Below are positions 3,094 through 48,841 of a stretch of 64,000 nt of DNA, piece after piece. Location of the stretch: the IMG/VR virus record IMGVR_UViG_3300035208_006940; one strand, given 5' to 3'. How positions within the stretch are numbered: the stretch's first letter is position 1; each line of letters opens with the position of its first letter. Under the pieces are notes generated by a model that made no database searches, was not told the origin of the DNA, and saw only the letters and a program-made list of their open reading frames with translations. The stretch comes from an uncultured virus (IMG/VR IMGVR_UViG_3300035208_006940). Taxonomy: Duplodnaviria > Heunggongvirae > Uroviricota > Caudoviricetes. The position numbers and the translations under genes are program-made.

Positions 3094-3540
3094 ATGTCCA
3101 GTCGGGGAATCACGCTGCTGCTGCAGCCCCAGGAACGCGTCTACGTCCCCAATCGCGGCGAGGGTTTCCGGCTCCGCGTCACAGCCACAGACGCTGTGGA
3201 CATGCCCGCGGAGATCTTCCTCCATCAGACGCGACTGGTCGATCCAGTGGAAGCAGTGAGCGGCGATGAGTTCATGTGCATCTGCTCGCCCTTCGACCTC
3301 ACCATCTACCCGGCCCAGGAGCCCGACCTGCTCCAATTCCCGCAGTTCTTTCGCAAGAGCGTGCTGGACGTCATCCTGCCCTCGCAGGCGGTGGCCGAGG
3401 AGAGCTGGCTGGCGATCTACGGCGAGGTCAATGGGCTGATCGAAGCGCTTAACAAGCTGGAGTATCTGTTGCCCGGTGAGTCTGTACGCTGTGGCGAGCC
3501 GTTGGCTGTTGACGATTCCGAGTCTGTCACTGAGGACTGA
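3094..3540 (+). CDS. Hypothetical protein
   Basis: AAGGAGG RBS upstream of ATG; typical codon usage. Confidence 0.7.
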   Translation: MSSRGITLLLQPQERVYVPNRGEGFRLRVTATDAVDMPAEIFLHQTRLVDPVEAVSGDEFMCICSPFDLTIYPAQEPDLLQFPQFFRKSVLDVILPSQAVAEESWLAIYGEVNGLIEALNKLEYLLPGESVRCGEPLAVDDSESVTED

Positions 3541-3542: not shown

Positions 3543-3857
3543 ATGCCGCTGCCCAAAACACCCAACGTCGACTTGACGGACGACAACTTGGTCCGCATTA
3601 TGCGCGATCCGAACTTCACCATCGCCTTTCCGTTCCTGGCCACGGCGATGGCAAGGGCCCAGGGCACCACGAAGAAGTGCGGCGGGTGCGGACGGAAGAA
3701 AAGGGCCAACCGCCACATCGATTTCAACCTCATCCGGCGACAAATTGTGGAGCTGCCGGTGGCCGAAAAGGGTCGCATGAAGGCCCTGCTGAACACGAAT
3801 CAGGTGATTATTCACTACCTGAAGACCAACGGGCAGAAGCACAAAATTCGCTTCTGA
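3543..3857 (+). CDS. Hypothetical basic protein (CGGC motif)
   Basis: Operonic spacing and codon usage. Confidence 0.65.
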   Translation: MPLPKTPNVDLTDDNLVRIMRDPNFTIAFPFLATAMARAQGTTKKCGGCGRKKRANRHIDFNLIRRQIVELPVAEKGRMKALLNTNQVIIHYLKTNGQKHKIRF

Positions 3858-3899
3858 TTTTGGGCTAAATTCGGGGTCAAAACGGGGCATAATACCTTG

Positions 3900-4500
3900 G
3901 TCCCAGAGCTTATGTTCTGCGGGCCACTTCTAGGGGTGCTGGCAAAGGCTCTTCTCGCACCTCGCGCTGTCTACCGCGGCCTGCCAAGGCCAATGACGGC
4001 GCTTCTCGGCATCGGACAAGTCCGATGACCAAATATCCGGGGACCTCTGTGACAAGAGGCGGCCTGCTCAACGCAGGACGAACGGTTGCACACCGCCCCA
4101 ATCGAGCTGTGACTCAGCTCGTTCGGCCATTGTTTACGGGTCGGAACCCGCGAACAACTGGCAAGCCACGGACCGCAAGGACCCTGGCCCATCGAACGAC
4201 AGAGTACGAACCTCTTCGCGGGGGTCTCGATACAAACGTGCCATTCTGTGTGGTAGATCCGTCGGAAGCCCTCCATGTCCGCAAGGCTGGAGTATTGGCA
4301 ACATGAACTTCCGACGTTGTAAGAGCCAATCTACTGCACACACGTGATCAAAATGGGCCTCGGGAGGCCTCCCCGCGTTTATCTGGGGAGGACGTGGCGC
4401 CTGCGGAACCTTCGGACCGCTCCGACAAGAGGGGCGGTTGGAGGGGATGCTGCATGGAACACCCGCTCATGCCGGACAACCGGCTATGCGAGGAGCCAGG
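3900..4500 (+). ncRNA. Candidate large structured ncRNA (~600 nt), family unassigned
   Basis: ~700-nt gap between real genes packed with hairpins; 5'/3' end pairing 3947-3959 with 4487-4497; nested helices 4247-4258/4329-4340 and 4260-4268/4308-4316; CATAAT upstream; terminator downstream. Confidence 0.65.
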
Positions 4501-4512
4501 TAAGTGTGCTCA

Positions 4513-4545
4513 CCGGGCCGCGTAAGGGCCCGGGCTTTGTTTTTC
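4513..4545 (+). terminator. Rho-independent terminator
   Basis: CCGGGCC/GGCCCGG stem followed by GCTTTGTTTTT. Confidence 0.65.
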
Positions 4546-4574
4546 TGTTGTCCCCCTACTACAAGGAGCCAATC

Positions 4575-4853
4575 ATGGCTAAGAAGCAAGCTACCATCGT
4601 TGACGACATCAATGAAACCTGCTGTGCCGGGTTCGCCAAGGGCCGCGAGACGGCCGACGCGTACCCGATGCTGCCGTCATCGCTGTTCATCGGAGCAGCG
4701 GTGGTGGGCTACGTGACCGAGTCCGTGTGCCAGGTGGCCAACTGCGTGGCCGCGTTGTTCGAGAGCGAGGAGGAGCCGGTGCCCGTTGTGGTCGCTGCCG
4801 GTCCGATTCGCCGCGGCCGCGGCCCCGCCAAGAAGCGGACCAGCAAGGAATAA
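4575..4853 (+). CDS. Small hypothetical protein with a hydrophobic segment
   Basis: AAGGAG RBS then ATG at 4575 (MAKKQATIV), in frame with ORF 4344..4853. Confidence 0.7.
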   Translation: MAKKQATIVDDINETCCAGFAKGRETADAYPMLPSSLFIGAAVVGYVTESVCQVANCVAALFESEEEPVPVVVAAGPIRRGRGPAKKRTSKE

Positions 4854-4856
4854 GTC

Positions 4857-5075
4857 GGGGGACTTAGGCGGTAGAGCCCGCCGAGGTTCCCCACCAGGCC
4901 CTCGGCGGGCCACCCGCTTTCCCCTGCGGTCTTCGGACCGATGAAAACAACCCCCATGGGTTGACGTTTGTTCGCACCGCTCCTCCCCCGCCGGGCCAAG
5001 GAGCTGGTGCAGCAGACGTCGCCTGTGGGGGCTTGTTACACTGACTACTCTTCCTCATAGCTATGGACCTTTTTC
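4857..5075 (+). ncRNA. Second structured intergenic element starting with a CCA-ended minihelix
   Basis: GGGGGAC/GTTCCCC-ACCA stem, GGTC-TTCG-GACC, CAACCC/GGGTTG, GCTCCT/AGGAGC, ending in a T-run. Confidence 0.4.
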
Positions 5076-5088
5076 TTTAGGTATCAAG

Positions 5089-5664
5089 ATGCGAAGACGC
5101 CGCAAGGGGGGCAAAGACCCCGAACCACGGAAGCCTGCAAAGAAGTCGATCGAGCACCCGATGATTCTGGCCAGCGGTCCTTGTGGCATCGATCCGCCCG
5201 CGCACGCCACGCCCAGGTATCGGCACAAGGATCTCCTCCCCTACCCGTTGATGCGAGCCAGTGTGAACACAGAGGACGAGTCCACCACGGGCTGCCCGTG
5301 GGTCGACGAGAAGTACGGGCTGGAGTACATCCGCTACTGGGAGAACGCCAAAGTCCCGCCGACGTGGATGGACCCCGAGCGGTTCGTGCGGATGTGCCAG
5401 GCCGACCCAGCGATCAAAGCGATCCTGGCTCGGTGCATCAAACGGAACACGCAGCTGCCCGGCCGTAGAGAACTGCCCGCCGAGCTGGACCGGATCATGG
5501 AGGAGGTCTACTTGCCCCATGTGTTGCGGCTGTTCGAGCGGCACAAGTGGCTGCTGGCCCAGTGGCTGCTGGCCAATCATGCGGACAAGGTGCACCACCG
5601 GGCCGAGCTGGAGAAGGAGCGCAAGTACCGAAGAACCCTTGGTACGAGCGAGCCGGACGAGTAG
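5089..5664 (+). CDS. Hypothetical protein
   Basis: ORF with typical codon usage. Confidence 0.6.
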   Translation: MRRRRKGGKDPEPRKPAKKSIEHPMILASGPCGIDPPAHATPRYRHKDLLPYPLMRASVNTEDESTTGCPWVDEKYGLEYIRYWENAKVPPTWMDPERFVRMCQADPAIKAILARCIKRNTQLPGRRELPAELDRIMEEVYLPHVLRLFERHKWLLAQWLLANHADKVHHRAELEKERKYRRTLGTSEPDE

Positions 5665-5733: not shown

Positions 5734-6063
5734 GTGGGACTGCAAGTCGTAGACGCATTTCAAGGAACGGACGGCGAGCTGCAAGGCACTGTGATCAAGG
5801 GGCAGGCCGGAACGGTCTGTTTGAAGAGCACGATGGTCAAGCAGGCAGAATTCCCCCGCGCGATCGACGAGCTGCGAAGCTCGGCGGCCAAACAGGAAGC
5901 GCTCGTGATCGCCGCCCAGCGGGGCGTGGCCGACCCGCGGATCAACGGCATGTCGTTGGCCCCGTATCCGGTTGACGCGCAAGGCAACAGCATCACCAAC
6001 CCACTCGTCCAGAAGACGGCCGAGTACCGAGTGGACATCCCCGTCACAGGACGCTTGGTGTGA
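5734..6063 (+). CDS. Hypothetical protein
   Basis: AAAGGAG RBS before GTG. Confidence 0.7.
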   Translation: MGLQVVDAFQGTDGELQGTVIKGQAGTVCLKSTMVKQAEFPRAIDELRSSAAKQEALVIAAQRGVADPRINGMSLAPYPVDAQGNSITNPLVQKTAEYRVDIPVTGRLV

Positions 6064-6623
6064 TCGTCGAACTGCCCACCATCAGCGAACTGCAGCACCT
6101 GCTCCACGCTCTACCACGGGACCAGTTCAATCGCACCGCGCGTTCCGTGTGCCGACTGGATCCCGACAAGGTCGCGGAGCAGGTGAGCAGTTGGGCGCTG
6201 TTGGCCTTGGAGCTTGCTGATGTGATGGCCGTGGTCACACCGCTGGGCGAGATGGAGCAGACGCTGCTGCTTCAGCAGATGGAGCCTTGCCTTACTCGGC
6301 AGCTGGAGCAGCTGTTGAAGGTCCAGGACGAGCCCGTCTTCACCGTGAGGCCGTGCTTACTCTCGCTGGCCGAGCTGCGATACGCGGCATGGCCGGACGT
6401 GGAGCAAGACAGCTTGTGGGACACCAAGGAAGCCAAGTGGATTCCCCGGCTGCCGCGGCCTCCTTTGTATTTCTCAGCAATCGACGTCAACGCGGTGTTT
6501 CTGTTCAACCGCACCCAACTGCTCTGTTCGCGACAGGCAGGCGCAATGGTAAAGGCACGGAGGCCTGACTATGCCGATAGGGATGGACGCCCGGAAGAAC
6601 ATCCGCCAGCTGCTGACGGATGA
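6060..6623 (+). CDS. Hypothetical protein
   Basis: GTGA overlap with upstream stop. Confidence 0.6.
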   Translation: MIVELPTISELQHLLHALPRDQFNRTARSVCRLDPDKVAEQVSSWALLALELADVMAVVTPLGEMEQTLLLQQMEPCLTRQLEQLLKVQDEPVFTVRPCLLSLAELRYAAWPDVEQDSLWDTKEAKWIPRLPRPPLYFSAIDVNAVFLFNRTQLLCSRQAGAMVKARRPDYADRDGRPEEHPPAADG

Positions 6624-7269
6624 GACTACGTTTGCCACGACGCTTCTCGTGCTGCTGCTGGACATGTATGGTCCCGATGCACTGGAATGGGACCCCCAGA
6701 CAGTGGTGCTAGAGTTCGCGGACGACTTCGGCGTCGAGCTTTCCCGTGAGAACCTCGACAAGCTGATGACGGCCCGGGAGATCTTCACCAGCGACGATTT
6801 CTTCCGCCGCTTGCCGATCTTCGTCCAGTTCTGTAACATCCTGGCTGGCGACGACGTCCGCCCGGACATGTTCAACCCGGCCGACGCGGCCGAGTGCGCC
6901 TGGGGAATCGTGGAGGGGCTGCTGATCTGCCCGCCGGAAGATGACGAGCCTTTTTGTGATGAAATCCGGTACTACGTCGGCAAGGCTCTGGACGATGAGG
7001 GCATCAAGAACCCGCCCGACGTCCTCCGCATTGCTCTGTACGCGTCCGACGGGGAGCCCAGCAGCGAAGCGGATTTCGGCAGCATGTCGCTCACTGATCC
7101 AGCAATGTTCGGCGGCGAGTTCCAGATACAGCAGTCTAAGGCCGATGAAATCTCTCGGATGATCAAGGAGAACCTGAACGACCTGATCCGACAACTGCAC
7201 TCCCTGCCCTTACAAACCGGACGCACGGAGGCGTTGCTGGAGAAGATCCAGGCTCAAGGCTGGCGGTAG
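6571..7269 (+). CDS. Hypothetical acidic phage protein
   Basis: GGAGG RBS; long ORF. Confidence 0.7.
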   Translation: MPIGMDARKNIRQLLTDETTFATTLLVLLLDMYGPDALEWDPQTVVLEFADDFGVELSRENLDKLMTAREIFTSDDFFRRLPIFVQFCNILAGDDVRPDMFNPADAAECAWGIVEGLLICPPEDDEPFCDEIRYYVGKALDDEGIKNPPDVLRIALYASDGEPSSEADFGSMSLTDPAMFGGEFQIQQSKADEISRMIKENLNDLIRQLHSLPLQTGRTEALLEKIQAQGWR

Positions 7270-7292
7270 ATATTCCGCACGTAAGTAATTTC
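7270..7292. promoter_or_regulatory. Copy 1 of a 23-bp quasi-palindromic site (core CGCACGTA)
   Basis: atattccgcacgtaagtaatttc; related copies at 25666, 31683 and 55438. Confidence 0.55.
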
Positions 7293-9586: not shown

Positions 9587-9922
9587 ATGGTGGTTGCGAC
9601 TGACAACAAAGTCCCGGAACCCGGGCCACTGTCTGAAGAGGACTGCGCCAACTTCGAGACACTCAGACGAGCGCACAGATCTGGCGATCTGGCCTTGGTG
9701 TCCGCGATCCGCAAAGCAGACGGCAAGCAAGTAGCACTCGTCTGCGCAATGGGCAGAGACGAGAAGGGCAATTACTGTCCCGTTCCGTTGGCAGTAATGG
9801 TCGAAGGCAACCCGTACGAACTGTTTCACGATCCAACGAGCACAGGAGACGACGATGGCGAGAGCCATTCACGTGAAGAAGGCCCGCAAGGACAATCCCG
9901 CGGCGGGCATCAAGAAGGGTGA
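9587..9922 (+). CDS. DUF6117-like protein
   Basis: NFETLRRA..GDLALV...VCAMGRD...GNPYELF.DP pattern. Confidence 0.6.
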   Translation: MVVATDNKVPEPGPLSEEDCANFETLRRAHRSGDLALVSAIRKADGKQVALVCAMGRDEKGNYCPVPLAVMVEGNPYELFHDPTSTGDDDGESHSREEGPQGQSRGGHQEG

Positions 9923-10409
9923 TGAGTATTGGCACGTCTCCTTTCGCAGCGGACGCTCCAGCTACACGCGGTACTTCACCAGCCCGCCTCGGCCCAGTCA
10001 GCTCACCCAGTCCGAGTTCCTGAGCAACATCTACGCTGCCCAGGAAGTCATCCAGGATGAGCTGCAGGAGCTGAAACAGGGCAAGCTCACTTTTCAGGAG
10101 CTGGCCGACATCATCGACGAGCAGAAGGAAGCTGTGGAGGAGCAGGGGCAGGAATGCGACGACAAGTTTGGCAACATGCCTGACAGCTTACAGGAAGGCC
10201 CCACGGGCGCGCTGCTGCAGTCCCGTGTTGACGAGTGCAACAACACGGCGCAGGAGCTGGACGAGGCGGCGGACACAATCCGCGATCTGGTGGAGAACGA
10301 CGAGATCCCTGAAGAGGCCACCGACGCGACCGCCAGACTGGCTACGGTGAAGGACAAGATCGAAGAAGCCGAGCGCGTCCTGGAGGACATCGGCTGGAAC
10401 ATGGAGTAA
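9855..10409 (+). CDS. Hypothetical phage protein with acidic coiled coil
   Basis: AGGAG RBS; codon bias. Confidence 0.7.
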   Translation: MARAIHVKKARKDNPAAGIKKGDEYWHVSFRSGRSSYTRYFTSPPRPSQLTQSEFLSNIYAAQEVIQDELQELKQGKLTFQELADIIDEQKEAVEEQGQECDDKFGNMPDSLQEGPTGALLQSRVDECNNTAQELDEAADTIRDLVENDEIPEEATDATARLATVKDKIEEAERVLEDIGWNME

Positions 10410-12378: not shown

Positions 12379-12624
12379 ATGCCGAAATATCGGATCGAGG
12401 CCCGTGAACGGTTCACCGTGATCACGGTCTACAACGAAGTCGAAGCCGAGGACGTCGAGCACGCGATCTCCAAGTGCAAGCACGGCACCGCGGCCTACGA
12501 CAGCAGCCAGCCGGATGACGACGGAGATGACGAGTACCTGGAAACCCTATCCGTAGAAAAGATCAACGACGACGGAAGGTCCGTGTCACAACAGGACACA
12601 GGACCTGATGCTAAGCCGGGGTAA
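12379..12624 (+). CDS. Hypothetical protein
   Basis: GGAG RBS; MPKYRIEARE. Confidence 0.6.
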   Translation: MPKYRIEARERFTVITVYNEVEAEDVEHAISKCKHGTAAYDSSQPDDDGDDEYLETLSVEKINDDGRSVSQQDTGPDAKPG

Positions 12625-13327
12625 CACCAAGCTTGGCCGCGAGATCTGGGCGTTCAACTTGCCGCGACGCAAAACCTGTCCCGTGACCTCTGCACTGTGT
12701 CGTGAACTGTGCTACGCAGACCGAGGCCACTTCATCTTGGACAGCGTCCAAGTCGCCCACGAAGCCAACTGGAGCGAAGCCAAGCGCTCCGACTTCGTGG
12801 CACGCGTCAACGCCCAGATCCTTTTGGAGTACATCCACACCGTACGGTTGCACGCCTCGGGCGATTTCTACAGCGTGGCCTACTTGAACAAGTGGATCGC
12901 TATCGCACGCAAGAACCGCCACGTGCGGTTCTTCGTGTACGCCCGCTGCTGGACTCGCAAGGACTACCTTGCGGCTCTTCGCATTCTGTCTCGCCTGCCG
13001 AACGTGCAGGTGTGGCTGAGCACCGACCGAACGATGGACCGACCGCCGAGAATCAAGGGAATGCGCATCGCCTGGATGGCGGAGAACGACACCGACGTGC
13101 CGCTCTACCCCGTGGACCTGGTCTTCCGCAATCGGCCGCGAACACCGATGAAGCGGATGGGCCCGCAGCGCGCTCTCGTTTGTCCTTACGAACAACTCAT
13201 TTCCCAGCGGCGTTTTCGCATCACTTGTTCGCGTTGCGGAATCTGCTACAACCCCCCAAGGAAGCGTACCCATGGCACGCCAACTCGATCCCCGTGTCCG
13301 TCCCGCCCTCGCCACGTTGCTCGCTGA
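12608..13327 (+). CDS. Gp88-like phage protein (radical-SAM-like Cys motif)
   Basis: GNTKLG, TCPVTSALCRELCYA, RLHASGDFYS, C-terminal CP...CSRCGIC. Confidence 0.8.
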   Translation: MLSRGNTKLGREIWAFNLPRRKTCPVTSALCRELCYADRGHFILDSVQVAHEANWSEAKRSDFVARVNAQILLEYIHTVRLHASGDFYSVAYLNKWIAIARKNRHVRFFVYARCWTRKDYLAALRILSRLPNVQVWLSTDRTMDRPPRIKGMRIAWMAENDTDVPLYPVDLVFRNRPRTPMKRMGPQRALVCPYEQLISQRRFRITCSRCGICYNPPRKRTHGTPTRSPCPSRPRHVAR

Positions 13328-15252: not shown

Positions 15253-18039
15253 ATGCCTCCTTGCTTGGTCTCGTTGAATAGCCACGTAAAGTGGATCACG
15301 TTGCTGAAGTTGCTGGGCTCCGAAGTGCGGACGCCTGCGATCCCCGCCGTTGTCCGCTGTCCGATCTGTTCCCACCTTCAGCTGGAAATCCTGCAGGATT
15401 ACATTTCCCACGGCGCATGGGGTGCCTGTCGTCACTGTCATTTCGCGGGGGACATGATCGAGCTGGCCGCAGCCACCTGGAAATTGAGCATCCCCGCGAC
15501 GATCCACAAGCTACAACAGAACGGCGTCGACATCCCCCCGGAAGCCTCACCAGCCGAGACCTACCGGCAGCAATACGTGGAGTACCGTCACCGTTTCCGT
15601 GAATTGTGGACGGAGGCCCAGGCTGGACTTCTCCATAATACCACACACCTCAAAGGCCTAGTATACGAGCTTGGGTGGCGGTGCGAGGTGCCTGCGGACC
15701 GCTGGACGGAGGGGCCCGCCCGAATTCTGGGAGCTGCCAGCACGCGGGATGTCGAGCGCTGTTTCATGCCCGGCACGTTTCGCACCACCGGCCGCAACAC
15801 CAGCAACTCGCGGTTGTTCAAGGGGGGTAAGTGGGACGGGGTCCTGATGATCCCCTTCTACGACCTGCCCGACCGCATGTGCGCCGCGATGTTCATCGGC
15901 CGCCGCGGCGACCCCGAACGCGACCAGGTCTTCCGCAGACTGCGACTGCGACAGACAGGGATCACACTGGCAGAGGGCCGACAGACTGCCGAACCCGCAC
16001 AAGAGGCTGGGCTGGCGTTCCACCCTGACACGTGGGTGGCAGCTGCCGACTGGGACCAGACGCTGTTCGCTTCCGACGATTTGTCGCTGGCGTGGCGGCT
16101 GCAGATGCGGCAGTTCGAGCATTCCGTCCTCCCCTTGCCGCTGGTCGTGTGGCGAGACGGACCCGACACCAAAGGAATCGCAACCCTCTCCCGCTTCGCC
16201 TGGCAAATGTTTGCCAACCAGTCCATCGTCTTCTGGGCACCCCGTCTGCAACCGGCCGCTGTGCGACAGGCCGTGGCCACGGACGGCCGGATCTCTACGG
16301 CAGGCTCCAAGTGCGAAGACGCGCGGCATCTGATCGAGTACACCGCCAAGTTCACGCCCGAAGGGCTCTTGCAGCACGTGCGCAAGACGGCACGGCCGTG
16401 GCCGGAGGTTATCGCCAAGCACCTCGCCGGGATGCCTGCCGAAGCCGCCGAGGACTTCATGCTGCAGCTGCAGCTGGAGACCATCCAGGTCAACCGGGTG
16501 GTGCGTTGCCTGGACGAGAAGATGCGGGAGCGTTGCCGCGACTGGCTCCGGCCGAAGTCACGACCACGCACTGTCATCGTGCGGCAAAAGCGGGTTCTCG
16601 AACAGGAGGACGGCTGGATCCTCCAGCACCAGGTTCGCCGGGCTGAGTTTGTTGCTGAGCTGCTGTGCGACGCTAAGCTGCGAATCGAAGAGGTGATCCA
16701 CTACAAGAAGCTCGATCAGACCTACTACCGCGGACACCTGGAGTACCGTGGCGAGCTGATCCCCTTCTGCGATCTGCGAAGCGAGGTGGAGGCTTCCCCG
16801 TTGTCCTGGATGCGTGGCCTGTTGCTGGCGAAGGGCAAGGGCCTGGTTCGTGGCCTGACGCTGTGGGACAAGTATCTGGTCAACATCGCGTTGCAGTTTC
16901 ATGAGCCGAAGATCCTCTACGGCACGGACACCGTGGGCTGGGACAAGCAGAAGCTGCAGTTCGTGCTGCCGCGATACATTGTGGGGCTCAAGAGCACGCG
17001 GCGCAACGAGGCCGCCGTGATGTCCGACGCGTTGCCTGCCGTCAACCTGATCCCGTTGCGCAATGACGAAACACTGGCCTGGGCTGGTCTCCCTCGCGAA
17101 GCTGAAGCCAGCGACGTCTACTGGGGTGCTACGGTCAACCTGCTGGCAAACGTGCTGGCCCCTGTGTTCAATCAGCCTACGGTGGCGTTGGGCCTTGTGG
17201 GAGACGGTGCGTACGCTGGGCTCGATGTGGCGGCTTGGCTGGGCTGTCTGAACTTGCCGTTGGAGACGGTCGCAGACTCACGCAAGCTGGCCGGGGAAGA
17301 GTTCAAGCACGACTGGCCCGTGGCCGTCGTACCGTCTCGCAGCGTGACGCCAGCGATCTGGCACAACTGGCTCAACCGCCGGGATCGTCCGCACAACTGC
17401 ATCACTCCGCTCGATCCACTGACGGCGGCCGTGCACCATCTGGACGGTGGCTGGCGACTGCTGTCCTGCAAGACGATCCCTGCGTTCGCTCCTCGCTTGA
17501 AGGAGTTCACTCGGCACTTCGTGGTGGTGTACCTGCAGGACCTGTGCAAGCGCAAGCTGCGGCTCAGCAACGATGACGGCGATTGGTTCTTGCGCGTGTG
17601 GGCCGATTGCGCAGACTTCGTGACCCGATCCCACGGCAAGCCTCTGCTGCCCGCCAAGATCCCCGAGAACATCCGCCCGGAGAACGTCGACGCCGAGTTG
17701 TCCTTCGTGGAAATGCTGGCTGAGCTGGTTGCCAAGGGTCAGCTGCGCCTGAGCCTGGGCGGCTACCAGGGGCCGCGAGACGCCAGCGCCCTGCTTCGCG
17801 TAGAGAAAGGCTTCCAGGACAACGAGGGGCTGTACGTGCCCCAGGAGGCCCTCTCCCGCGTGCTGACACGCAAGCGACTGCCAGTGCCCGAGACGGACCG
17901 GATCACCGCCGCGCTGGCGGAGGCGAACGTGCTGGGCGAATGCCGGGACGAAGGCTGGGTCCTCGACAGCCAGTGGTGGTCTCGCCACTTCCGTCGGCTG
18001 GCCACCGTGCAGCAGCGAGCGTTCAAGGTGGTGGGCTAG
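15253..18039 (+). CDS. Large DnaG-like Zn-finger/primase-related protein (apparently degenerate)
   Basis: CPIC...CRHC..GDMIELAA resembles the primase Zn-binding domain; LMIPFYD..DRMCAAMFIGR resembles the DnaG N-subdomain; no clear Toprim acidic motifs. Confidence 0.6.
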   Translation: MPPCLVSLNSHVKWITLLKLLGSEVRTPAIPAVVRCPICSHLQLEILQDYISHGAWGACRHCHFAGDMIELAAATWKLSIPATIHKLQQNGVDIPPEASPAETYRQQYVEYRHRFRELWTEAQAGLLHNTTHLKGLVYELGWRCEVPADRWTEGPARILGAASTRDVERCFMPGTFRTTGRNTSNSRLFKGGKWDGVLMIPFYDLPDRMCAAMFIGRRGDPERDQVFRRLRLRQTGITLAEGRQTAEPAQEAGLAFHPDTWVAAADWDQTLFASDDLSLAWRLQMRQFEHSVLPLPLVVWRDGPDTKGIATLSRFAWQMFANQSIVFWAPRLQPAAVRQAVATDGRISTAGSKCEDARHLIEYTAKFTPEGLLQHVRKTARPWPEVIAKHLAGMPAEAAEDFMLQLQLETIQVNRVVRCLDEKMRERCRDWLRPKSRPRTVIVRQKRVLEQEDGWILQHQVRRAEFVAELLCDAKLRIEEVIHYKKLDQTYYRGHLEYRGELIPFCDLRSEVEASPLSWMRGLLLAKGKGLVRGLTLWDKYLVNIALQFHEPKILYGTDTVGWDKQKLQFVLPRYIVGLKSTRRNEAAVMSDALPAVNLIPLRNDETLAWAGLPREAEASDVYWGATVNLLANVLAPVFNQPTVALGLVGDGAYAGLDVAAWLGCLNLPLETVADSRKLAGEEFKHDWPVAVVPSRSVTPAIWHNWLNRRDRPHNCITPLDPLTAAVHHLDGGWRLLSCKTIPAFAPRLKEFTRHFVVVYLQDLCKRKLRLSNDDGDWFLRVWADCADFVTRSHGKPLLPAKIPENIRPENVDAELSFVEMLAELVAKGQLRLSLGGYQGPRDASALLRVEKGFQDNEGLYVPQEALSRVLTRKRLPVPETDRITAALAEANVLGECRDEGWVLDSQWWSRHFRRLATVQQRAFKVVG

Positions 18040-19898
18040 GCCCGGTCCGACCAGTCCACGCCTCGCAGCGGGTGTACGGCCTTCAAAGCCTCCGGGTCCG
18101 CCGCCAGCCGAGACACCTCGGCCAGGTTGGGCCAGCGGCGCGCACGATAGAACAACGCGCAGGTGCCGATGTTCACGGCCTGGGCAAAGTCGTCCGGGCC
18201 GACCTGTTCGCTCTGAATCACCGTGTGGATCGGCGTGCCGGTGGCACTCTGGACCTCGTCTTCCATCAGCGACAGGAAGTCGTGCAGCAGTCCTCGCTGC
18301 TCCACGCCCTTGTAGTCGTACTGGAAGAACTTCAACCGGCCGAACTTGATCAGGAAGCACGTCTGCAGTAGCGAACGGGACTTGTCCAAGCGGTAGTGCT
18401 CCCGCTGCAACGTGCGGCGGTTCTGTGGAATGCGTCGCATGATCGGACCGGCGGCCGCACGGAACAGGGCCACGGGGATGATCCGCTTGATCGGGTAGCC
18501 CGAGTTGACGAACAGCGTTTCGCGGATCGCACCGGCACCCGTGTAGTCGTGGGCGATGTGGGAGCAGTGGAACTCGGCACACAGCTTGAGGATCACGCTC
18601 GCTTCCAGGTTGTGATCGTGCGGCGTGAGGGATCGCCAGCCAAACGGAACATGGATCGTGCCGTCCGGGAGCATGCAACACAGAGCGGCCACGGTGAAGC
18701 TGATCTCTTTCTCGCCGCCTCCGCCCCAGTCCACCGCCAGGATCCGGTGGATGTAGTCGTTGCGGTTCTTGCGAATCCGCTCAACCTCGCCGTTGGGTCC
18801 CAGGATGGCAGCTCGTTTGAGATCCGTGATCGTGACCAGCTTGGCCCCGATGTCGTACGACTCGCCACACACCTCGTTGTAGAAGACGTTGGTGGGTGTG
18901 TTGCCGAAGCCTTGCCGCTTGCCTTGCAGAATGGCCCACTTGTCGTGGCTCGCATAGTGCATCGGCAGCAGCAACTGGGGCACGTGGTAGCCCGAGTACT
19001 CGAACCGCAGCTCGGGGTGCGCGTGAACCCAGCGGCCGCGACGGGGGAAGATGACGCGTTCGCACTTGGCACAGCACGTGCCCGGCCGCTCCTCGCTGAT
19101 GTCGTCGGGAACCGTGATCGGCCCCATCATCTTGTCCAGGTCGTGCGACATGCACGGGATGTTCCAGTAGCCGCACGCTTCGCAGCGGATGCACCACTCG
19201 GCCTGGCTCGACATCTGCCACTGTGTTTCGAGCGTGTTGTCCAGCGTCTTCGGAGTTCCACTGAACTCTTGAATGCCCCAGTTCTTCGATCCCGACATCG
19301 TCTCGCGGATGATGGGGATGAACGCCGGGTCGAGATCCTGGACCTCATCGTAGTGAATGCAGTCGCAGTTCAACCCACGCGTCCGGTCCGCATCGAGAAA
19401 AGCAAAGCTGAAATGGATCGTGGAGTGGGTCTTGAACGACCGCTGCAGCACGTTGTTGTAGCAGGCCTGATCCACAAACAGACTTCGCACAGGAGATTCT
19501 TCAATGAAGCCGCGCACGTAGTTCGATGAGAACCGTCGCGTCATTTCGTACAGCGGCGTCACGTACAGCGTGTTGAAGTACGCGATACTGCTCGACCGCA
19601 GCACGTGCTTGGCTGCACCACTGGTGGACTTGCTGGTCTGCCGCCCACACTTCAAGCACAAGTTTCGGGGAGTGTGGGTCGAGAAGAAGGGCTCGAAGGG
19701 GAAATGATCGAGGAGCTTGTAGGGCTCCCCTTTGAGGTTCAGCATGATCGGTAGGACCGGCTTCAAATTGGCGAGCCGCCCTTCCAACAGTACCCGGCGA
19801 GCCGCCTGGAGTTCTTCAGACAGTTCGCTAGCGGAGAGGCCCGCCAAGCCGCTACCGAAGCCCAGGTCGACGAGGCCACTCTTGTTGCACTGGCACAT
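18036..19898 (-). CDS. terL: Terminase large subunit, lambda GpA-like
   Basis: Walker A CGRQTSKST, Walker B YDEVQD, GTPKT coupling motif, CEAC...CAKC Zn motif, nuclease AVDWGGGG and DDFAQA; start approximate. Confidence 0.9.
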   Translation of the reverse strand: MCQCNKSGLVDLGFGSGLAGLSASELSEELQAARRVLLEGRLANLKPVLPIMLNLKGEPYKLLDHFPFEPFFSTHTPRNLCLKCGRQTSKSTSGAAKHVLRSSSIAYFNTLYVTPLYEMTRRFSSNYVRGFIEESPVRSLFVDQACYNNVLQRSFKTHSTIHFSFAFLDADRTRGLNCDCIHYDEVQDLDPAFIPIIRETMSGSKNWGIQEFSGTPKTLDNTLETQWQMSSQAEWCIRCEACGYWNIPCMSHDLDKMMGPITVPDDISEERPGTCCAKCERVIFPRRGRWVHAHPELRFEYSGYHVPQLLLPMHYASHDKWAILQGKRQGFGNTPTNVFYNEVCGESYDIGAKLVTITDLKRAAILGPNGEVERIRKNRNDYIHRILAVDWGGGGEKEISFTVAALCCMLPDGTIHVPFGWRSLTPHDHNLEASVILKLCAEFHCSHIAHDYTGAGAIRETLFVNSGYPIKRIIPVALFRAAAGPIMRRIPQNRRTLQREHYRLDKSRSLLQTCFLIKFGRLKFFQYDYKGVEQRGLLHDFLSLMEDEVQSATGTPIHTVIQSEQVGPDDFAQAVNIGTCALFYRARRWPNLAEVSRLAADPEALKAVHPLRGVDWSDRA

Positions 19899-20019
19899 GG
19901 GTACTGCATCCTTGCAGGCGACGTAGTGGGTCGCCGAAAACTCTGCTATGCTGAGGTCAGGAGGACCTAGCATTCTCCGCGGACATGATGTCCACACCGC
20001 AATATAGGAGGAGACTGAA

Positions 20020-20301
20020 GTGGGCCACAATAGCGCTTGCTGTCCTGCCGTTGGTGTTCCCGTGCCCTTGGGAATGACCCTCAACAGCGCCAAGAACTTC
20101 TTGGAACGCCAGGGCATCCTCCGCGCGGATCGCTGTCCGATGCCGCGCACTTCACCGGGATGGTGGAAGGTCCACACGATCCCTTTGGCGCCCCCGCTTC
20201 CGCTACCTCCTCTGCAGTTCTACCTCCTGGGCGACCCGCCGCCAGACCGCGGGGTGACCCGCGACTGGCCGCATCCGAAGTCCGTGGAGGACGAGACCTG
20301 A
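20020..20301 (+). CDS. Hypothetical protein (frame uncertain; alternative 20037..20450 has a hydrophobic C-terminus)
   Basis: GGAGGAG RBS before GTG at 20020. Confidence 0.4.
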   Translation: MGHNSACCPAVGVPVPLGMTLNSAKNFLERQGILRADRCPMPRTSPGWWKVHTIPLAPPLPLPPLQFYLLGDPPPDRGVTRDWPHPKSVEDET

Positions 20302-31472: not shown

Positions 31473-31682
31473 ATGGTGGAGATGGATCTCCCAGCGCCGC
31501 CACAACCAGGCGAACGGCAGTGCCTGCGTTGTAACGTGTTTTTTCTTTCGCCCGACCGGGTGCGGCTGCGGCTGTGCCCAGTGTGCCGCAAGCTCAACGA
31601 GCAAGACAGCGGCATTCGCACGGTCTCTTCTGGTCAGTTCAACGCGGCGGTCCGTTCGGTAATGGACTCCGGCGAAATCTGA
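31473..31682 (+). CDS. Small Zn-ribbon protein
   Basis: RQCLRC...RLCPVC. Confidence 0.7.
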   Translation: MVEMDLPAPPQPGERQCLRCNVFFLSPDRVRLRLCPVCRKLNEQDSGIRTVSSGQFNAAVRSVMDSGEI

Positions 31683-31707
31683 ATTCTCCGCACGTAAGGA
31701 ATATCTT
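31683..31707. promoter_or_regulatory. Copy 3 of the 23-bp quasi-palindromic site
   Basis: tccgcacgtaaggaatatctt (31687-31707) is identical to 55442-55462. Confidence 0.6.
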
Positions 31708-33155: not shown

Positions 33156-34287
33156 CGCGCACGCGGATGAAGGGACCTGGGCGAGCTACCCGGACCTCCG
33201 GGGAGACTCGTTCTGGGCGCTGGAGCAGGTTCACCAGCACGCGGCGACGCATCGCGTGCCGTGGATTGTCGGTGCCGGGGACATGCTCAATCGAAAGGCG
33301 AACGAGGCCGCGGTGGCCGGGTTCATTCGGCGGTGGATGGAATCACTCCACGCCGACGGAGTCAGCCTGGCGTTCAGCCAGGGTCAGCACGATCACCAGA
33401 AGATCCCATGGCTTTGTGAATTGAGCGATCAGGCGATCTGGCTGGACGCCAAGCCCGGTGCGGTGTTGGAGATCGAAGGCTGCCCGATCCAGGGTTTCGA
33501 CTGGACGCCCGCGGACAGGCTTGCGATCCGGCTGCGGGAAGAAGTGCAGCCCAACACGGCGATCCTGTTCTTGCACCAGGTGTGCGACGCGTTCATGGGA
33601 GATGTCGCGATGCCTGAGCTGAACTTCAGTCAGGTGCCCTACGTGTCGTTGCTTGGCGTGGGGGACTACCACGAGCACAGGGTGCTGAAGACCTTGGGCG
33701 CCAATGGACAGTCGCTCACCGTGCTCTCACCAGGGAGCACGTGCATGCAGAAGATCAACGAGCCGCCCATCAAGCACTTCTTCGTGATCTACGATGATCT
33801 GAGTTTCACCAGCCAGCCTTTCCTGTCGCGACCCTTCCTGGACATCCCGTCGATTCTCGACACGGATGGCCTGGAAGACTTTGAGGCGACCATTGGCAAC
33901 CAGCTGGACGAGGTACGGGACAGTGCGGCGACGGCCAAGTTGCCGGAGTCGGTGCGGAAGCCTATCGTGCACGTGGAGTTCAGCTTGGCAGTAGCCGGGG
34001 CGCATCGTCGAATCATGAAGGCTGTGGGTGACCGGGCCCATCTGTTCATGCCCACCACGGACCCGCGGCGGCCGACCGAGGCTGGGGCGATCAAGGACGA
34101 GGCCGCACGGGCCCGCCGTCATGAGATCGCTGCTAAGGGTCTGCTGGGCTGTCTGGATCAGGACGTGGATCGGAAGCGGGAGCCCGTGCTGTACTCGCTC
34201 CTGCACGATCTGTTCACCACGGACGATCCCGACGCGGTAATTCGTGAGAAACGGAAGGACTATGACCTTGAGGCAAAGGGAGCGTAG
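33094..34287 (+). CDS. sbcD: SbcD/Mre11 metallophosphoesterase nuclease
   Basis: LADAH, AGDML, GQHD, FLHQ, GDYHEH, SPGS motifs. Confidence 0.9.
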   Translation: MAKRVSKPSPSAKPLAIFLADAHADEGTWASYPDLRGDSFWALEQVHQHAATHRVPWIVGAGDMLNRKANEAAVAGFIRRWMESLHADGVSLAFSQGQHDHQKIPWLCELSDQAIWLDAKPGAVLEIEGCPIQGFDWTPADRLAIRLREEVQPNTAILFLHQVCDAFMGDVAMPELNFSQVPYVSLLGVGDYHEHRVLKTLGANGQSLTVLSPGSTCMQKINEPPIKHFFVIYDDLSFTSQPFLSRPFLDIPSILDTDGLEDFEATIGNQLDEVRDSAATAKLPESVRKPIVHVEFSLAVAGAHRRIMKAVGDRAHLFMPTTDPRRPTEAGAIKDEAARARRHEIAAKGLLGCLDQDVDRKREPVLYSLLHDLFTTDDPDAVIREKRKDYDLEAKGA

Positions 34288-36417
34288 ATGAGGATCGACC
34301 TGTTCGAGTTGGGCAACTTCTGCCAGCACCGTTCGCTGCGATGGAAGTTCAAGCCGGGTCTCGTGGGGGTCTGCGGGCCCAACGGAGTCGGCAAATCGAA
34401 TGCGGTGAGCGTGGGCATCTACGCCTGTCTCACAGGAGATTACAGTCGCCATCCGCTCGGCAAGGCCGGTTGCATCTGCCAGCAAATGGAGGAGGGCGAG
34501 TCCTCGTTCATGCGGCTGTGTGGGCAGCAAGGGGCCACGGTGTTCGACTTGCGCCGTGGCTTGGCCAACCCCGAAAACCATCGGTTGGCCATCAAGGGGA
34601 TCAAGGAGGTGATCACCAAGGCTCCCGAGATCCAGACGAAGCTGGAGAGCGTGTTGGGGCTGCAGCGGCGGTTGATCGACGACTACGTGTTCATCAACCA
34701 GGGCGACATGTTTGCGGTGCTCTCGGCTCTTCCGGCCAAGCGGGCCCAGAGTTTTGCACGCCTCTGCGCCACGGCAAAGGCCGAGGCGGCTTGGAAGGCG
34801 TTGGGCCCGTGGATCGACAAGGATATGCCGCTGACCGTGGCCAGCGTGGGTGATCTGGCAGTGATCGAGGAGGAGCTGGCGACGTTCCGCAAGCGTGTCC
34901 GGGTGGCGAGCCGGAAGCTGAAAGAGGCCAAGCACCTGTTGCTCAAGCTCGCCGCAAAGAAGGAGCAGGAGCAAATCGTTCGTGACTTTGCACGACGCGA
35001 GGAGTTGGCGACGCGGATCAAGGAGCTGGACAGGGACGAGCAGAAGCTGCTGTTCGCAGCCAGAACGGCGTCCAGCGCCTATCGCGACGCCGAGGAAGAG
35101 GCTCACGGTGCCAGCGTTGCGATTGGTGTGCTGCGAGAGCACGTGCAGCGGGACGCGGACGATGTGGCGGCGTACGAGGAGCGGAAGAAGCTCTGGGAGC
35201 GCAAGCAGGAACTCGACAAGGAGCGGGAGACGCTGACAGACGCCGAGTGGCCTGAGCTGGAGTGTCCCTGCGACGCTACGGTGGAGGCTCTGGTGACCGA
35301 GCAGGCCGAGGGGCAGGCGGCGGTCCGGGAACTGGAGAAACGGGCCGAGCTGCTGTGCGCCGGGGAGTGCCCAACGTGCGGAAAGCCGTTCGACGACCCC
35401 GACGAGACGGTTGAGGATGTCGAGGCGCGTGTGAAGGACCTCAAGGCCCGCCTGGCATTCCTTGTGCGGCTGATACCCGCTCGGCGGCTGTACGAGAACC
35501 AACTTGCCAAGCAGCGGCAATTGCAGGCTGTCGCCTCTTCTCGGCTGAAACAGGTCAAGAAGGAGCTGGTGGAGTTGGTTGGTGTGTCTGCGCCGCCTGC
35601 TAGCGCGGCCAAGAAGGCCGAGGAAGTCAAGAAGCTGCGCAAGGAGATTAGCGACAAGGAGGCCGCACAGGAAACGCGGGTGACGCGACGCGACGGGTTG
35701 CTCAGAGTGCGAGAGCAGCGAGTCGCAGAGCACAGGGCGAAGAAGCAGGCACTGTCCGCAGCTCACGACGAGTACGACAAGATCGCTGTGACCAAGGTCG
35801 ACAAGGACAGCGCGGAGAAGGTGCTGCAAGCCAATCGCGACAACGAGCTGGCCGTGGAACGGCACCGGGCTAAGTTGGAAGAGTTCCAGCGTACGGTGGA
35901 AGAGAAGGAGCGGGCGCTGGAGCAGGGCCGTGCAGTTCGTGATCGTGGTGCACGCGCGGCGGTGTGGGTGACATTGCTCTCACGGGCGAGGGAGAAAGCG
36001 CATCGTGACAATCTCCCGGCGAAGGTGCACCACGCCGCGTTGGAGGACCTGGAGGAAAAGGTCAACGAGTCGCTGGGCGAGTTCGACTCGCCGTTTCGGG
36101 TGAGCGCCACGGAGGACCTGTCCTTCACGGCACACTTCAATAACGGCACTGTAGTCCCTGCGGCGGCGTTGTCCGGGGGGCAGAAAATGCTCCTTGCCAT
36201 TTCTTTCCGACTGGTAGTGAACTCCACCTACGCCGACCAAATGGGCATAATGATCCTGGACGAACCCACCGACGGGCTCGACCAGGCCAATCGTGCCCTG
36301 GCCGCGGACGTCTTTGTCCGTCTGGGCGATCTTGCCAAGCGGCGAGGCCACCAGATCATTGTGGTCACCCACGACGAGATCCTACACCGAACCTTTGACG
36401 AGATCCTCTCGCTGTGA
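34288..36417 (+). CDS. sbcC: SbcC/Rad50 SMC-like ATPase
   Basis: GPNGVGKS, coiled coil with CPTC Zn hook, LSGGQ, ILDEPT, VTH. Confidence 0.95.
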   Translation: MRIDLFELGNFCQHRSLRWKFKPGLVGVCGPNGVGKSNAVSVGIYACLTGDYSRHPLGKAGCICQQMEEGESSFMRLCGQQGATVFDLRRGLANPENHRLAIKGIKEVITKAPEIQTKLESVLGLQRRLIDDYVFINQGDMFAVLSALPAKRAQSFARLCATAKAEAAWKALGPWIDKDMPLTVASVGDLAVIEEELATFRKRVRVASRKLKEAKHLLLKLAAKKEQEQIVRDFARREELATRIKELDRDEQKLLFAARTASSAYRDAEEEAHGASVAIGVLREHVQRDADDVAAYEERKKLWERKQELDKERETLTDAEWPELECPCDATVEALVTEQAEGQAAVRELEKRAELLCAGECPTCGKPFDDPDETVEDVEARVKDLKARLAFLVRLIPARRLYENQLAKQRQLQAVASSRLKQVKKELVELVGVSAPPASAAKKAEEVKKLRKEISDKEAAQETRVTRRDGLLRVREQRVAEHRAKKQALSAAHDEYDKIAVTKVDKDSAEKVLQANRDNELAVERHRAKLEEFQRTVEEKERALEQGRAVRDRGARAAVWVTLLSRAREKAHRDNLPAKVHHAALEDLEEKVNESLGEFDSPFRVSATEDLSFTAHFNNGTVVPAAALSGGQKMLLAISFRLVVNSTYADQMGIMILDEPTDGLDQANRALAADVFVRLGDLAKRRGHQIIVVTHDEILHRTFDEILSL

Positions 36418-46300: not shown

Positions 46301-46597
46301 ACCAAGGGGTCGTTAGTGCCCCAGACAATCCAGATGTTGCGCACGTGCATGCGGGACCGCGTTCCGCTGTACCCGTGTCATCTGGACGGTACGCCGGACG
46401 GGACTGGCCCGCATTACCTCGACGTCGACATCAACATCTTCACGCACTGGATGCAGCAAATGATGCCGGACGAGTGTTTGAGCCTCGGTTTTTCGCCCAA
46501 ATACGCGGGGTGGCTGAAGGTCGAACGGGGGTGGCTGCATCCGTCGTTCGACAAGAAAATCTGGCGGAAAGGACAGCTTTACGACATCGCTGTCTGA
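43289..46597 (+). CDS. polA: Family A DNA polymerase with N-terminal uracil-DNA-glycosylase-like and 3'-5' exonuclease domains
   Basis: UDG4-like VIGKMLGEDE..GRNFAGPTG, YVTN, HPA; exo VDLE, YGCYDAD; motifs A ADYIGAEL, B RDVAKTVVFGIAYG, C QIHDS. Confidence 0.95.
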   Translation: MSTQAPSRKPPAAFTAKPANVELKYRKVDPGQPMFPLNAPGMPLPGPLPYEHARALGDTTEIVGKAKSRQLAQVGEMLTNLYHQILYSPTSYVPAKTKAGEIRMMRCVPGHLWGGDVTGPVRATVMVIGKMLGEDERNSGRNFAGPTGRLLLDSCNKLGIHPAQWYVTNLMKTEHPNAANGDTDVRKAMIDEWLPLLHQELRLVCPDYILCLGTDASKALLGKDATVSKMDGRVVEYRIPLRKSQDDEDETHVAQVMTIVHPAWVLREPNDLDKFENGLNRFGQLIGGTRWDQKEDGLDHRVIDNLKDLKKLYFEIQRDCKDGLLGVDLEWHGEHPVNKGAYVRTFQVSWAHKKAACISLRHPGGKLRFQGGILNAHRWIQKICRDKILVGHFFAADMEWAQAAGLKEVLKTFFSVPRTWQAYMRRCLAGKGPAGFDTGYAAHAVCETDSFDLTSLTLKYTAAPRYDLKLEAWKTQYCKDHKMKVGDMEGYGECPNDVLEPYGCYDADVTRRIAVKLLKLLCSDGFGNNCWEPFWINMRAVPAILEINTTGLPVDRKRMELLTETYRSACASMERQIREWAKWSDFNLNSVFDVREYLFGEKYNGKKRVNPTDPPIRLRPAKAKSLRLMPVLTTDKRSMQWAEVIERGLEAEKTPSTGKLALAILMQESMEVVRKKHGQQYIEDCSKQVGWIRDHRFIRQVLKYTLRPPNMKDGLEEFERDEDGELVYDKGLPASICDDGYVRTHISPTKETGRWGSSRPSMQNFTKRREKDYKRILGPDYKYPLRTIITAPPGCVIIEADYIGAELAGMAFMSGDPTMIDHVMRAQLPESDPRYYDIHSHIACLAFQLQCVPTKHGLDKIGKKHLRDVAKTVVFGIAYGRGAKAIALAAREESIFISVAEAQAVIDAVFEMYPGLVPYFAACRERALTARWLCGAYGRFRRFPVTQDRKVAGDFEREAQNFPIQGFVADMVGRAVDHVYHYREKHPDLWYRLALQIHDSLMVVTKGSLVPQTIQMLRTCMRDRVPLYPCHLDGTPDGTGPHYLDVDINIFTHWMQQMMPDECLSLGFSPKYAGWLKVERGWLHPSFDKKIWRKGQLYDIAV

Positions 46598-48757: not shown

Positions 48758-48786
48758 GTTGAAGACGTGACGTTGGGTCACGCTTT

Positions 48787-48827: not shown

Positions 48828-48841
48828 GTCGAGGAGATCGC

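Follow-up and report, generated by a model that had tools for sequence, protein, structure and literature searches.

Our analysis of a 64,000-nucleotide (nt) stretch of DNA from an uncultured virus (IMG/VR record IMGVR_UViG_3300035208_006940), here called the window, indicates that a 650-base gene-free stretch is probably transcribed, from a promoter shared across a clade of related phages, into a hairpin-rich RNA without relatives. A sequence-only reading of the window had flagged this stretch (3900-4545; taken here as 3899-4545 on the plus strand) as a candidate for a large, highly structured orphan RNA; as a putative new RNA it is credible. It forms part of a unit of the approximate extent 3865-5084, comprising a promoter-like motif, the 645-nt hairpin array, a terminator, an orphan gene, a second folded stretch, and an end motif (Table 1). 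The explanation that we favor, and advance tentatively, is that the flagged stretch is both a lineage-specific structured RNA cargo and the leader of the gene at 4575-4853, within a conserved promoter-proximal expression cassette.

The non-coding interval (3858-4574) sits between the genes 3543-3857 and 4575-4853. G+C content at the first, second, and third codon positions is approximately.6/.42/.8 in the true genes of the window, compared with.64/.58/.54 in open reading frame (ORF) 4025-4306 on the plus strand and.55/.61/.65 in ORF 3971-4276 on the minus strand. A run of 690 nt (3886-4575) has no three-base periodicity; it had been described as the largest non-coding gap in the window, which holds except that 57586-58275 equals it in length, the latter being overlapped by long ORFs. 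ORF 4025-4306, the one candidate whose conservation as a protein would have argued for coding, gave no hit at E ≤ 0.001 in a search of 1.84 billion representative proteins; neither ORF has a Pfam or PHROG match, and tblastx of the flagged stretch against related phages gave noise only. A coding reading was rejected on these grounds, in agreement with the earlier assignment of the stretch as non-coding.

Searches for known RNA families were likewise negative. The Rfam 15 covariance models (including ROOL, GOLLD, OLE, raiA, HEARO, RNase P, tmRNA, 6S, introns, riboswitches, and T-box), the check that the sequence-only reading had proposed, gave no match at gathering score over the whole 64 kb. 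At E ≤ 10 the region 3800-4650 yields a single row, Glutamine-II on the minus strand, which scores 11 bits where the gathering score is 33 (E 7.3) and is attributable to chance. ARAGORN identified no tRNA or tmRNA genes in the window. A group I or group II intron was rejected: the upstream gene, which encodes a small CxxC protein, ends at the same C-terminal motif as 11 intact homologs (alignment A5), and the downstream gene 4575-4853 has its own ribosome-binding site (RBS) and start codon. The absence of an RNase P, tmRNA, or intron signature, noted at the outset, was thus borne out by the models, by ARAGORN, and by the intact flanking genes. For a riboswitch or attenuator leader, no Rfam aptamer is found on 3800-4650, and a non-exhaustive look by eye at 4300-4512 revealed no antiterminator complement to CCGGGCC, the 5′ arm of the terminator.

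The cassette is best seen by comparison with related phages. Using the conserved protein 6571-7269 as an anchor (alignment A2), 56 related loci were gathered; the clade consists of uncultured phages of approximately 180-235 kb. The closer loci (L039-L076) have a common gene order, which in window coordinates is 1670-2707, 3094-3540, 3543-3857, a variable slot, (5089-5664), 5734-6063, 6060-6623, and 6571-7269. The flagged stretch lies in the variable slot.

Right behind the stop codon of the CxxC gene, members of the clade carry a motif of the form gCTAAATT, 14 or 15 nt, G(T/G)CATAAT, NNNN, TG. Nine columns are invariant (T11, A13, A14, G31, C33, A34, T35, A36, and G44) in an alignment of 20 instances from 16 loci (A3). 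A relaxed form of the pattern is present within approximately 110 nt of the CxxC stop codon in 21 of 27 loci, compared with 24 of 1080 control windows, and four of the six loci that miss it contain near-matches by eye. In the window the motif has one match in 64 kb, both strands considered; neither the contexts of CATAAT nor a repeat search revealed a general promoter shared across the genome. The CATAAT at 3888-3893 had been singled out as resembling a -10 element, a guess that is strengthened because it belongs to this clade-conserved element. We infer from the conservation that the motif is a putative promoter with a start at about G3899. The first base so transcribed would be paired in 13 of the 20 promoter instances, against 151 of 400 control 45-mers, and in the window it opens a 5′ hairpin with predicted pair probabilities of ~0.93.

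The CxxC gene belongs to a family of proteins of ~100-115 amino acids (aa), in which a 12-sequence alignment (A5) shows invariant D13, C49, and K80 and near-invariant C46; the family profile matches 45 of the 56 related loci. The window protein, which is also recorded on a 228,799-bp contig, finds only itself among word-sharing candidates, and distant relatives are found by tblastn and by profile. At E ≤ 0.1, no Pfam family was found for the protein or for any of its 11 relatives. The best PDB profile match has an E of 0.075 (an SUI1 homolog), Foldseek against PDB gave nothing at E ≤ 0.001, and the AlphaFold2 model has a mean predicted local distance difference test (pLDDT) score of 74.8. Five related loci contain a second, more distant CxxC paralog ~2.8 kb upstream of the copy at the slot (E 1e-23 to 2.5e-27).

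At the other end of the RNA, the intrinsic terminator proposed by the sequence-only reading was called by a terminator scan, and its stem (4513-4533), followed by GCTTTGTTTT, has pair probabilities of ~0.95. Gene 4575-4853, the product of which has no Pfam or PHROG match, starts 30 nt past the terminator with the RBS in between; the space is too short for a separate promoter, so the gene must be read by polymerases that read through the terminator. The 235-nt stretch that follows it folds far more strongly than the flagged region. For 4845-5095 the minimum free energy (MFE) is -130.4 against a shuffle mean of -91.3 (z -7.89; 0 of 200 shuffles as stable), and the stretch gives the strongest 200-nt window of the locus. 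Judged by synteny and the end motif, this second stretch (4854-5088), and not the flagged region, is the positional counterpart of the long hairpins of relatives and of a structured RNA in the related phage G002; on the same two lines of evidence, the G002 RNA was rejected as a counterpart of the flagged region. The end motif consists of a T-run followed by TAG(C/G)TAT(TGG), directly ahead of the next conserved gene. Its 24 aligned instances (A4) share an invariant TTA..T.T, and 19 of 30 loci contain a stricter pattern. Copies with T-rich sequence upstream are confined to the slot, both in the window and in G002.

In the favored explanation, transcription would start near G3899 at the motif kept behind the CxxC gene, and the RNA would open with a hairpin at +1 and continue through about 20 mostly local hairpins. 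Most transcripts would stop at the terminator (4513-4545), giving a hairpin-capped, probably stable RNA of ~645 nt. Following the observed gene order, polymerases that read through would express 4575-4853 and then meet the second folded stretch; this read-through would be stopped, or its product processed, at the end motif (5070-5084), ahead of the conserved downstream genes. By analogy with known arrangements, a promoter firing into a terminator would yield an abundant short RNA, and the genes behind it would depend on read-through. The RNA body might serve as a decoy, a scaffold, or a stabilizer, or have no role.

Folding predictions agree with a hairpin-rich RNA. On the plus strand, 3895-4545 has an MFE of -295.9 against a shuffle mean of -255.9 (z -5.42), and none of 20 dinucleotide shuffles is as stable; the minus strand gives a z of -4.38. 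The signal is present in both the 5′ half (3895-4194: z -5.19, 0 of 200 shuffles as stable) and the 3′ half (4195-4494: z -3.27, 1 of 200). The energy difference between the strands, -18.7, falls inside the usual asymmetry of the genome (mean -13, standard deviation [SD] 18), so strand asymmetry of folding cannot assign a strand in the window. The predicted fold consists mainly of ~20 local hairpins in series, and the long-range pairs of the MFE structure shift with the choice of folding ends.

All of the sequence features described by the sequence-only reading were found where it had placed them, and the nested helices that it had recognized in the center of the RNA are well supported by pair probabilities of ~0.8-1.0. 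The central domain (4236-4345) has a z of -3.10, with 0 of 200 shuffles as stable. Within it, TGTGTGGTAGAT (4247-4258) pairs with ATCTACTGCACA (4329-4340) and CGTCGGAAG (4260-4268) with CTTCCGACG (4308-4316), and CTCCA/TGGAG is also present. Pair probability in the three inner helices is 0.81-1.0 for 25 of the 26 scored pairs and 0.45 for one closing pair, the outer helix 4236-4240/4341-4345 being excluded from the scoring. The pseudoknot suggested between ATTGGC (4294-4299) and GCCAAT (4325-4330) is a bare 6-bp complementarity. Pairing of the RNA end to end had also been proposed, and GGCTCTTCTCGCA (3947-3959) is indeed complementary to TGCGAGGAGCC (4487-4497), with 6 + 5 bp and a UU bulge; however, the helix has a probability of ~0.25, costs +0.9 kcal/mol to enforce, and is absent from the MFE structure. 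In the folding model it is a competitive alternative, one of several that are nearly equal.

A new class of large "ornate" RNA, free-standing and acting in trans, with a global fold built on the end-to-end helix and the pseudoknot and with gene 4575-4853 as an unrelated neighbor, appears rather improbable. It would account for the length of ~645 nt with a promoter-like site and a terminator of its own, for the stability relative to shuffles (z -5.42), and for the thermodynamic competitiveness of the end-to-end helix (~0.25; +0.9 kcal/mol). The RNA is phage-borne, and a tRNA occurs in the same cassette of 3 of 36 relatives; ROOL and GOLLD are often located near tRNA genes. Some relatives' cassettes contain much stronger folds, with long-range helices of 24-30 bp (G002), and the tandem units of five loci look like RNA genes. 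However, local hairpins dominate the flagged RNA and its long-range pairs vary with the folding ends, the excess over native windows is modest (see below), and there is no Rfam match. Furthermore, there is no covariation, as no homolog was found; no common sequence and no common detectable model link the RNA bodies of relatives; and gene 4575-4853 lacks a promoter of its own. The proposal of a new ROOL- or GOLLD-like class, in the form of one ~600-nt RNA with a global fold, is not supported: local hairpins dominate, the native excess is modest, and the end-to-end helix is an alternative.

In related phages the same slot holds units of very different length. The minimal units (L043a, L051, L052, L062, and L065) have 75-81 nt and consist of a 5′ hairpin and a terminator-like hairpin only; between L051/L052 and L062/L065 the hairpin sequence is fully replaced and the flanks are kept. 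Longer units, of 259-490 nt (L041, L043b, L044b, L046, L047, L049b, L061a, L061b, and L066), are strongly folded. In all 13 units tested, the longest plus-strand ORF is at most 62 aa, z on the plus strand ranges from -3.6 to -11.0, and 0 of 40 shuffles is as stable; plus-strand energy is at least as low as that of the minus strand in 11 of the 13. The L041 unit reaches a z of -9.90 (0 of 200 shuffles as stable), and a tandem direct repeat, two copies of GGGCGCCTCTATAACTA (4088-4122), lies between the hairpins of its cassette RNA. In G002, the nearest related phage, the cassette comprises four ORFs and then a 530-nt ORF-poor stretch (L019 13790-14330) with helices of 16, 24, and 30 bp and a closing 5′/3′ helix. 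This stretch has a z of -10.75 on the plus strand versus -5.80 on the minus strand (-257 vs -226 kcal/mol) and no Rfam match at E ≤ 10. Its 24-bp long-range helix (13879-13905/14197-14223) also resembles terminal inverted repeats flanked by ACAC.

A tRNA-Met(CAU) gene is present ~190 nt past the promoter motif in the cassettes of 3 of 36 loci scanned (L056, L063, and L066; Rfam 53-64 bits), which indicates that the sequence after the motif is transcribed as stable RNA in these three. In L056 and L063 the tRNA-Met is followed by a ~143-aa Cys-rich ORF. Double compensatory changes were identified at 12 of 50 predicted pairs in L056/L066/L063 and at 3 of 54 in L047/L061, and the long hairpin of L057/L058 has one compensatory A-U to G-C exchange among its 7 differences. 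On the evidence of these substitutions, pairing is under selection in the cassette RNAs of the relatives. Their RNA bodies share no sequence, and no shared covariance model was detected among them.

The minimal cassettes, with just two hairpins whose sequence is replaced between kept flanks, raise the alternative of a leader or gate that acts purely in cis. What counts would then be just the promoter, the terminator hairpins, and the end motif, as controls on read-through or antitermination of 4575-4853 and the genes downstream, and the 600 nt in between would have no sequence-specific role. The position of the terminator, 30 nt ahead of the start codon with the RBS between them, agrees with such a gate, as does the RBS of the downstream genes in G002, L041, and the window, which is at or just past the end motif with no space for a separate promoter. 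The promoter motif, near-unique in the genome and beside a conserved small protein gene, also fits. However, a gate leaves unexplained both 600 nt of hairpin-rich sequence in a gene-dense phage and the contrast in a relative from run X3 between 99% identity over 3863-4013 and 86% in the gene behind; no antiterminator was recognized, and tandem cassettes would be odd for a single gate. We consider this alternative unlikely.

Natural variation gives a hint of constraint. The flagged stretch is free of any difference in two independent samples (X1 and X2), and another IMG/VR record of 64 kb (G001) is identical to the window across it. In the X3 relative, one contig (151 nt) differs from the window at 2 of 151 bases over 3863-4013; the listed change, C3920T, is at the bulged position of the 5′ hairpin. 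Another contig (157 nt) lies in the next gene (4643-4792) and differs at 21 of 150 bases, 8 of the 14 listed differences being at codon position 3. This contrast may reflect constraint acting on the promoter and on the RNA's first 115 nt.

Several observations weigh against the favored explanation. The X3 contrast itself rests on contigs with a depth of ~2.3 that cover 343 of the 1901 bases compared, and phage mosaicism could give the same pattern. No homolog of the flagged RNA was found in the collections searched, so there is no covariation for that RNA and the covariation test could not be run on it. Blastn against 50,697 phage GenBank records gave no match, and exact 22-mer and 20-mer probes against IMG/VR hit the same genome only. 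An 18-mer scan of metagenome contigs gave 29 loci, 28 of which match only 18-26 bases around the probe, as expected by chance. In five related phage genomes the best blastn E was 0.19, and blastn and nhmmer against the 56 related loci returned only the query itself. Two covariance models each retrieved only their own sources: R2, built from the RNA's first 133 nt and run over 795 kb of related phage DNA, and R1, built from the L056-type 5′ domain and run over 405 kb.

The putative promoter, the strength of the fold, and the relatives furnish further points of this kind. The promoter assignment rests on conservation counts: the -35-like hexamer shares 2 of 6 positions with TTGACA, and a generic sigma-70 scan of the window did not call the site at 3865-3899. 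None of the sequencing runs in which the flagged stretch occurs is an RNA run, and the four runs compared with it consist of DNA contigs. No antiterminator was recognized, and neither Pfam nor PDB yielded a relative of the CxxC protein. Because native sequence of the same genome also outfolds its shuffles and varies more, the flagged region was also compared with 146 windows of 650 nt tiled over the 64 kb, with energy regressed on G+C. It ranks second, with a modest robust z of -2.18, behind its right-hand neighbor window; with pairs restricted to a span of ≤45 it ranks first, again by a modest margin (z -2.86), and none of the 200-nt windows inside it falls below -2.2 against the native background. 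No other stretch of the window is as dense in hairpins as the flagged region, which leads by a modest margin, and the shuffle test that the sequence-only reading had called for, passed clearly in its own terms, is tempered to this extent. In the relatives, a part-coding unit in L056 reaches a z of -9.75, showing that a low z alone is no proof of an RNA gene, and tandem promoter-RNA-end units occur in five loci, a pattern more in keeping with free-standing RNA genes than with a single gate. Conservation of the RNA bodies does not consistently exceed that of the flanking genes, two of three close pairs failing to show this (identity of unit RNA vs CxxC gene: L051/L052, 95.3% vs 87.2%; L062/L065, 92.9% vs 95.7%; L056/L066, 78.9% vs 88.5%).

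Some of these points would also suit a functionless spacer, in which decayed cargo genes or the remnant of an insertion had left G+C-rich non-coding DNA with incidental hairpins. The sequence is an orphan in a slot of fast cargo turnover, its structure stands only ~2-3 robust SD from native windows, and cassette RNA is not better conserved than flanking genes in two of the three close pairs. A spacer of this kind is nevertheless distinctly unlikely, given that no residual coding periodicity or protein similarity is found and that the region is at the top of the 146 windows for local hairpins. The identity of X1 and X2 and the 99% identity of the X3 relative over the first 115 nt also argue against it, and phage genomes rarely retain 0.65 kb of junk.

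The possibility of an element acting as DNA, such as a replication origin or packaging site that uses the inverted repeats, seems extremely remote. Both the promoter motif and the end motif are near-unique in the genome, TAGCTA is palindromic, and origins composed of a promoter plus a downstream element are known in T-odd and T-even phages. However, iterons, direct repeats, and an AT-rich unwinding stretch are all absent, and G+C skew, which is flat in both the window and G001, shows no switch at the slot. The lower energy of the plus strand in G002, and in 11 of 13 units a plus strand that at least equals the minus strand, point to RNA.

In addition to the cargo-and-leader explanation favored here, the cassette might be a new kind of hypervariable phage RNA locus, with the CxxC gene, the near-unique promoter, and the end motif as its dedicated frame, in which structured RNAs of 75 to >600 nt, unrelated across lineages, turn over rapidly and of which the 645-nt RNA of the window is the largest member; we give this idea only a small chance. 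Under it, the RNA could possibly serve as a decoy or scaffold in a phage-host arms race, and the CxxC protein might be its partner or its regulator.

Table 1. Features of the cassette, of the window, and of related loci
Feature	Position	Strand	Details
Small CxxC protein gene	3543-3857	+	104 aa; directly upstream of promoter-like motif; codon-position GC.51/.38/.82
Promoter-like motif (putative)	3865-3899	+	CTAAAT 3865-3870, 17-nt spacer, CATAAT 3888-3893, 4 nt, TG 3898-3899
5′ hairpin (predicted)	3898-3926	+	12 bp, UUAU loop, bulged C3920; starts at putative +1
Flagged non-coding hairpin-rich RNA body (putative)	3899-4545	+	~645 nt, from putative start to end of terminator T-run; no coding periodicity
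Local hairpin array (predicted)	3933-4190	+	~10 consecutive hairpins; 5-15 bp stems, 4-6-nt loops including GCAA; centroid and MFE
Central nested domain (predicted)	4236-4345	+	helices 4236-4240/4341-4345, 4247-4258/4329-4340, 4260-4268/4308-4316, 4271-4280/4285-4292
Intrinsic terminator	4513-4545	+	stem 4513-4533, 7 G-C pairs, 7-nt loop, then GCTTTGTTTTT; terminator scan
RBS	4563-4568	+	AAGGAG
Orphan gene	4575-4853	+	92 aa; codon-position GC.62/.50/.84
Second non-coding folded stretch	4854-5088	+	~40-bp irregular hairpin 4946-5037; 235-nt gap between genes 4575-4853 and 5089-5664
Unit end motif	5058-5084	+	TAGCTAT 5058-5064, T-run 5070-5077, TAGGTAT 5078-5084
Next conserved gene	5089-5664	+	191 aa, ATG at 5089; tblastn matches in G002 and L041, none in PHROG or Pfam
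Terminase large subunit	18036-20177	-	phrog_675, E 3e-43
Family-A DNA polymerase + uracil-DNA glycosylase (UDG) domain fusion	43139-46597		Pfam/PHROG matches; helicases also encoded in window
CxxC paralog, related loci	L056 1655-1981; L062 2384-2710; L063 1687-2013; L065 2384-2710; L066 463-789		
tRNA-Met(CAU), related loci	L056 4955-5027; L063 4998-5071; L066 3810-3883		

The window belongs to a large, G+C-rich (~60%) phage. Among 17 neighboring proteins, a PHROGs search at E ≤ 0.1 yielded nothing informative; rows below 1e-3, for 9855-10409 and 12608-13327, are of unknown-function families only. The sole close IMG/VR relative of both proteins that flank the flagged stretch is the record itself. 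The polymerase fusion at 43139-46597 is a single ORF of 1152 aa, with a uracil-DNA-glycosylase-superfamily domain at residues 169-321 (E 1.6e-16) and a family-A DNA polymerase domain (E 1.3e-40).

A 24-nt motif, GAAATTCCGCACGTAAGGAATATC, occurs in three copies (7269-7292, 31682-31705, and 55437-55460) that are 79-100% alike; it forms a small hairpin, ATTCC-GCACGTAA-GGAAT, with a loop similar to that (GCGTAAG) of the 4513-4533 terminator, and it may be a candidate phage regulatory site. Elsewhere, 48149-48540 consists of GAG/GAC/GAA-rich repeats in 9-nt phase (~30 overlapping copies) that would encode a very acidic Asp/Glu-rich segment. Long minus-strand ORFs (e.g., 33727-35865 and 47978-50368) have the codon-position G+C pattern of antisense shadows of plus-strand genes.

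Among known systems, the cassette resembles, in its sequence order, the lambdoid PR′-tR′ leader. Lambda 6S RNA arises from PR′-tR′. In both cases a near-unique promoter, here a putative one directly behind a small conserved gene, leads into a terminator; as predicted for the cassette, this would yield an abundant non-coding RNA, and genes behind it that have no promoter of their own would need read-through. The order of promoter-like motif, terminator, and genes without their own promoter, as expected of a late leader, is present in the window and in relatives, and accessory cargo, including tRNA genes, is promoter-proximal in some relatives. As outlined in a study of Shiga-toxin phages, the lambdoid late promoter is always on and its transcription is terminated at once, and the short transcript can be a regulatory RNA (StxS; PMC7547250). 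In contrast to the lambdoid system, no Q-family antiterminator is recognizable by Pfam, PDB profile, or Foldseek on the CxxC protein; the flagged RNA is at least three times longer, the promoter motif differs, and the phages are uncultured and of ~180-235 kb, not lambdoid.

Two other kinds of phage unit also invite comparison. Stable RNAs C and D of the T4 tRNA cluster, of ~120-140 nt, are conserved among T4-like phages; like the cassettes of L056, L063, and L066, they represent structured phage RNAs that share a unit with tRNA genes, whereas the window is free of tRNA genes and its 645-nt RNA is an orphan. Phage morons are promoter-gene-terminator units inserted between conserved genes. The cassette is similar in being a lineage-specific insert bracketed by a promoter and terminators, with cargo that is swapped between relatives, but its promoter and end motif belong to the conserved backbone and its cargo is mostly non-coding RNA.

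ROOL (RF03087) and GOLLD (RF01998) are described as large ornate RNAs (PMC5737381; bioRxiv 10.1101/2024.12.08.627333). The flagged RNA is of the same 500-800-nt size class and is likewise phage-borne, non-coding, and of a function that is not known, and a tRNA is found in the cassette of 3 of 36 relatives. Unlike ROOL and GOLLD, it has no conserved family or covariation and no match to their covariance models even at E ≤ 10, and its fold is predicted to be an array of local hairpins, in contrast to multi-way junctions and pseudoknots with comparative support.

Large structured phage RNAs such as ROOL and GOLLD are few, and their functions are not known. The conserved cassette around the flagged RNA is a more useful result than the single orphan RNA, and it is testable: a promoter motif (21 of 27 loci), a conserved small protein gene, and an end motif enclose folded RNAs, tRNA, and small genes that vary between lineages. 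This setting was not met in the literature on jumbo-phage structured RNA, ROOL and GOLLD, or late-promoter leaders, although no search was aimed at the motif and its absence from the literature is not claimed. If the cassette is a promoter-proximal terminated unit, it would provide a handle on the control of gene expression in an uncultured clade of jumbo phages, together with a natural series of RNA cargoes, from 75 to 650 nt, for comparison.

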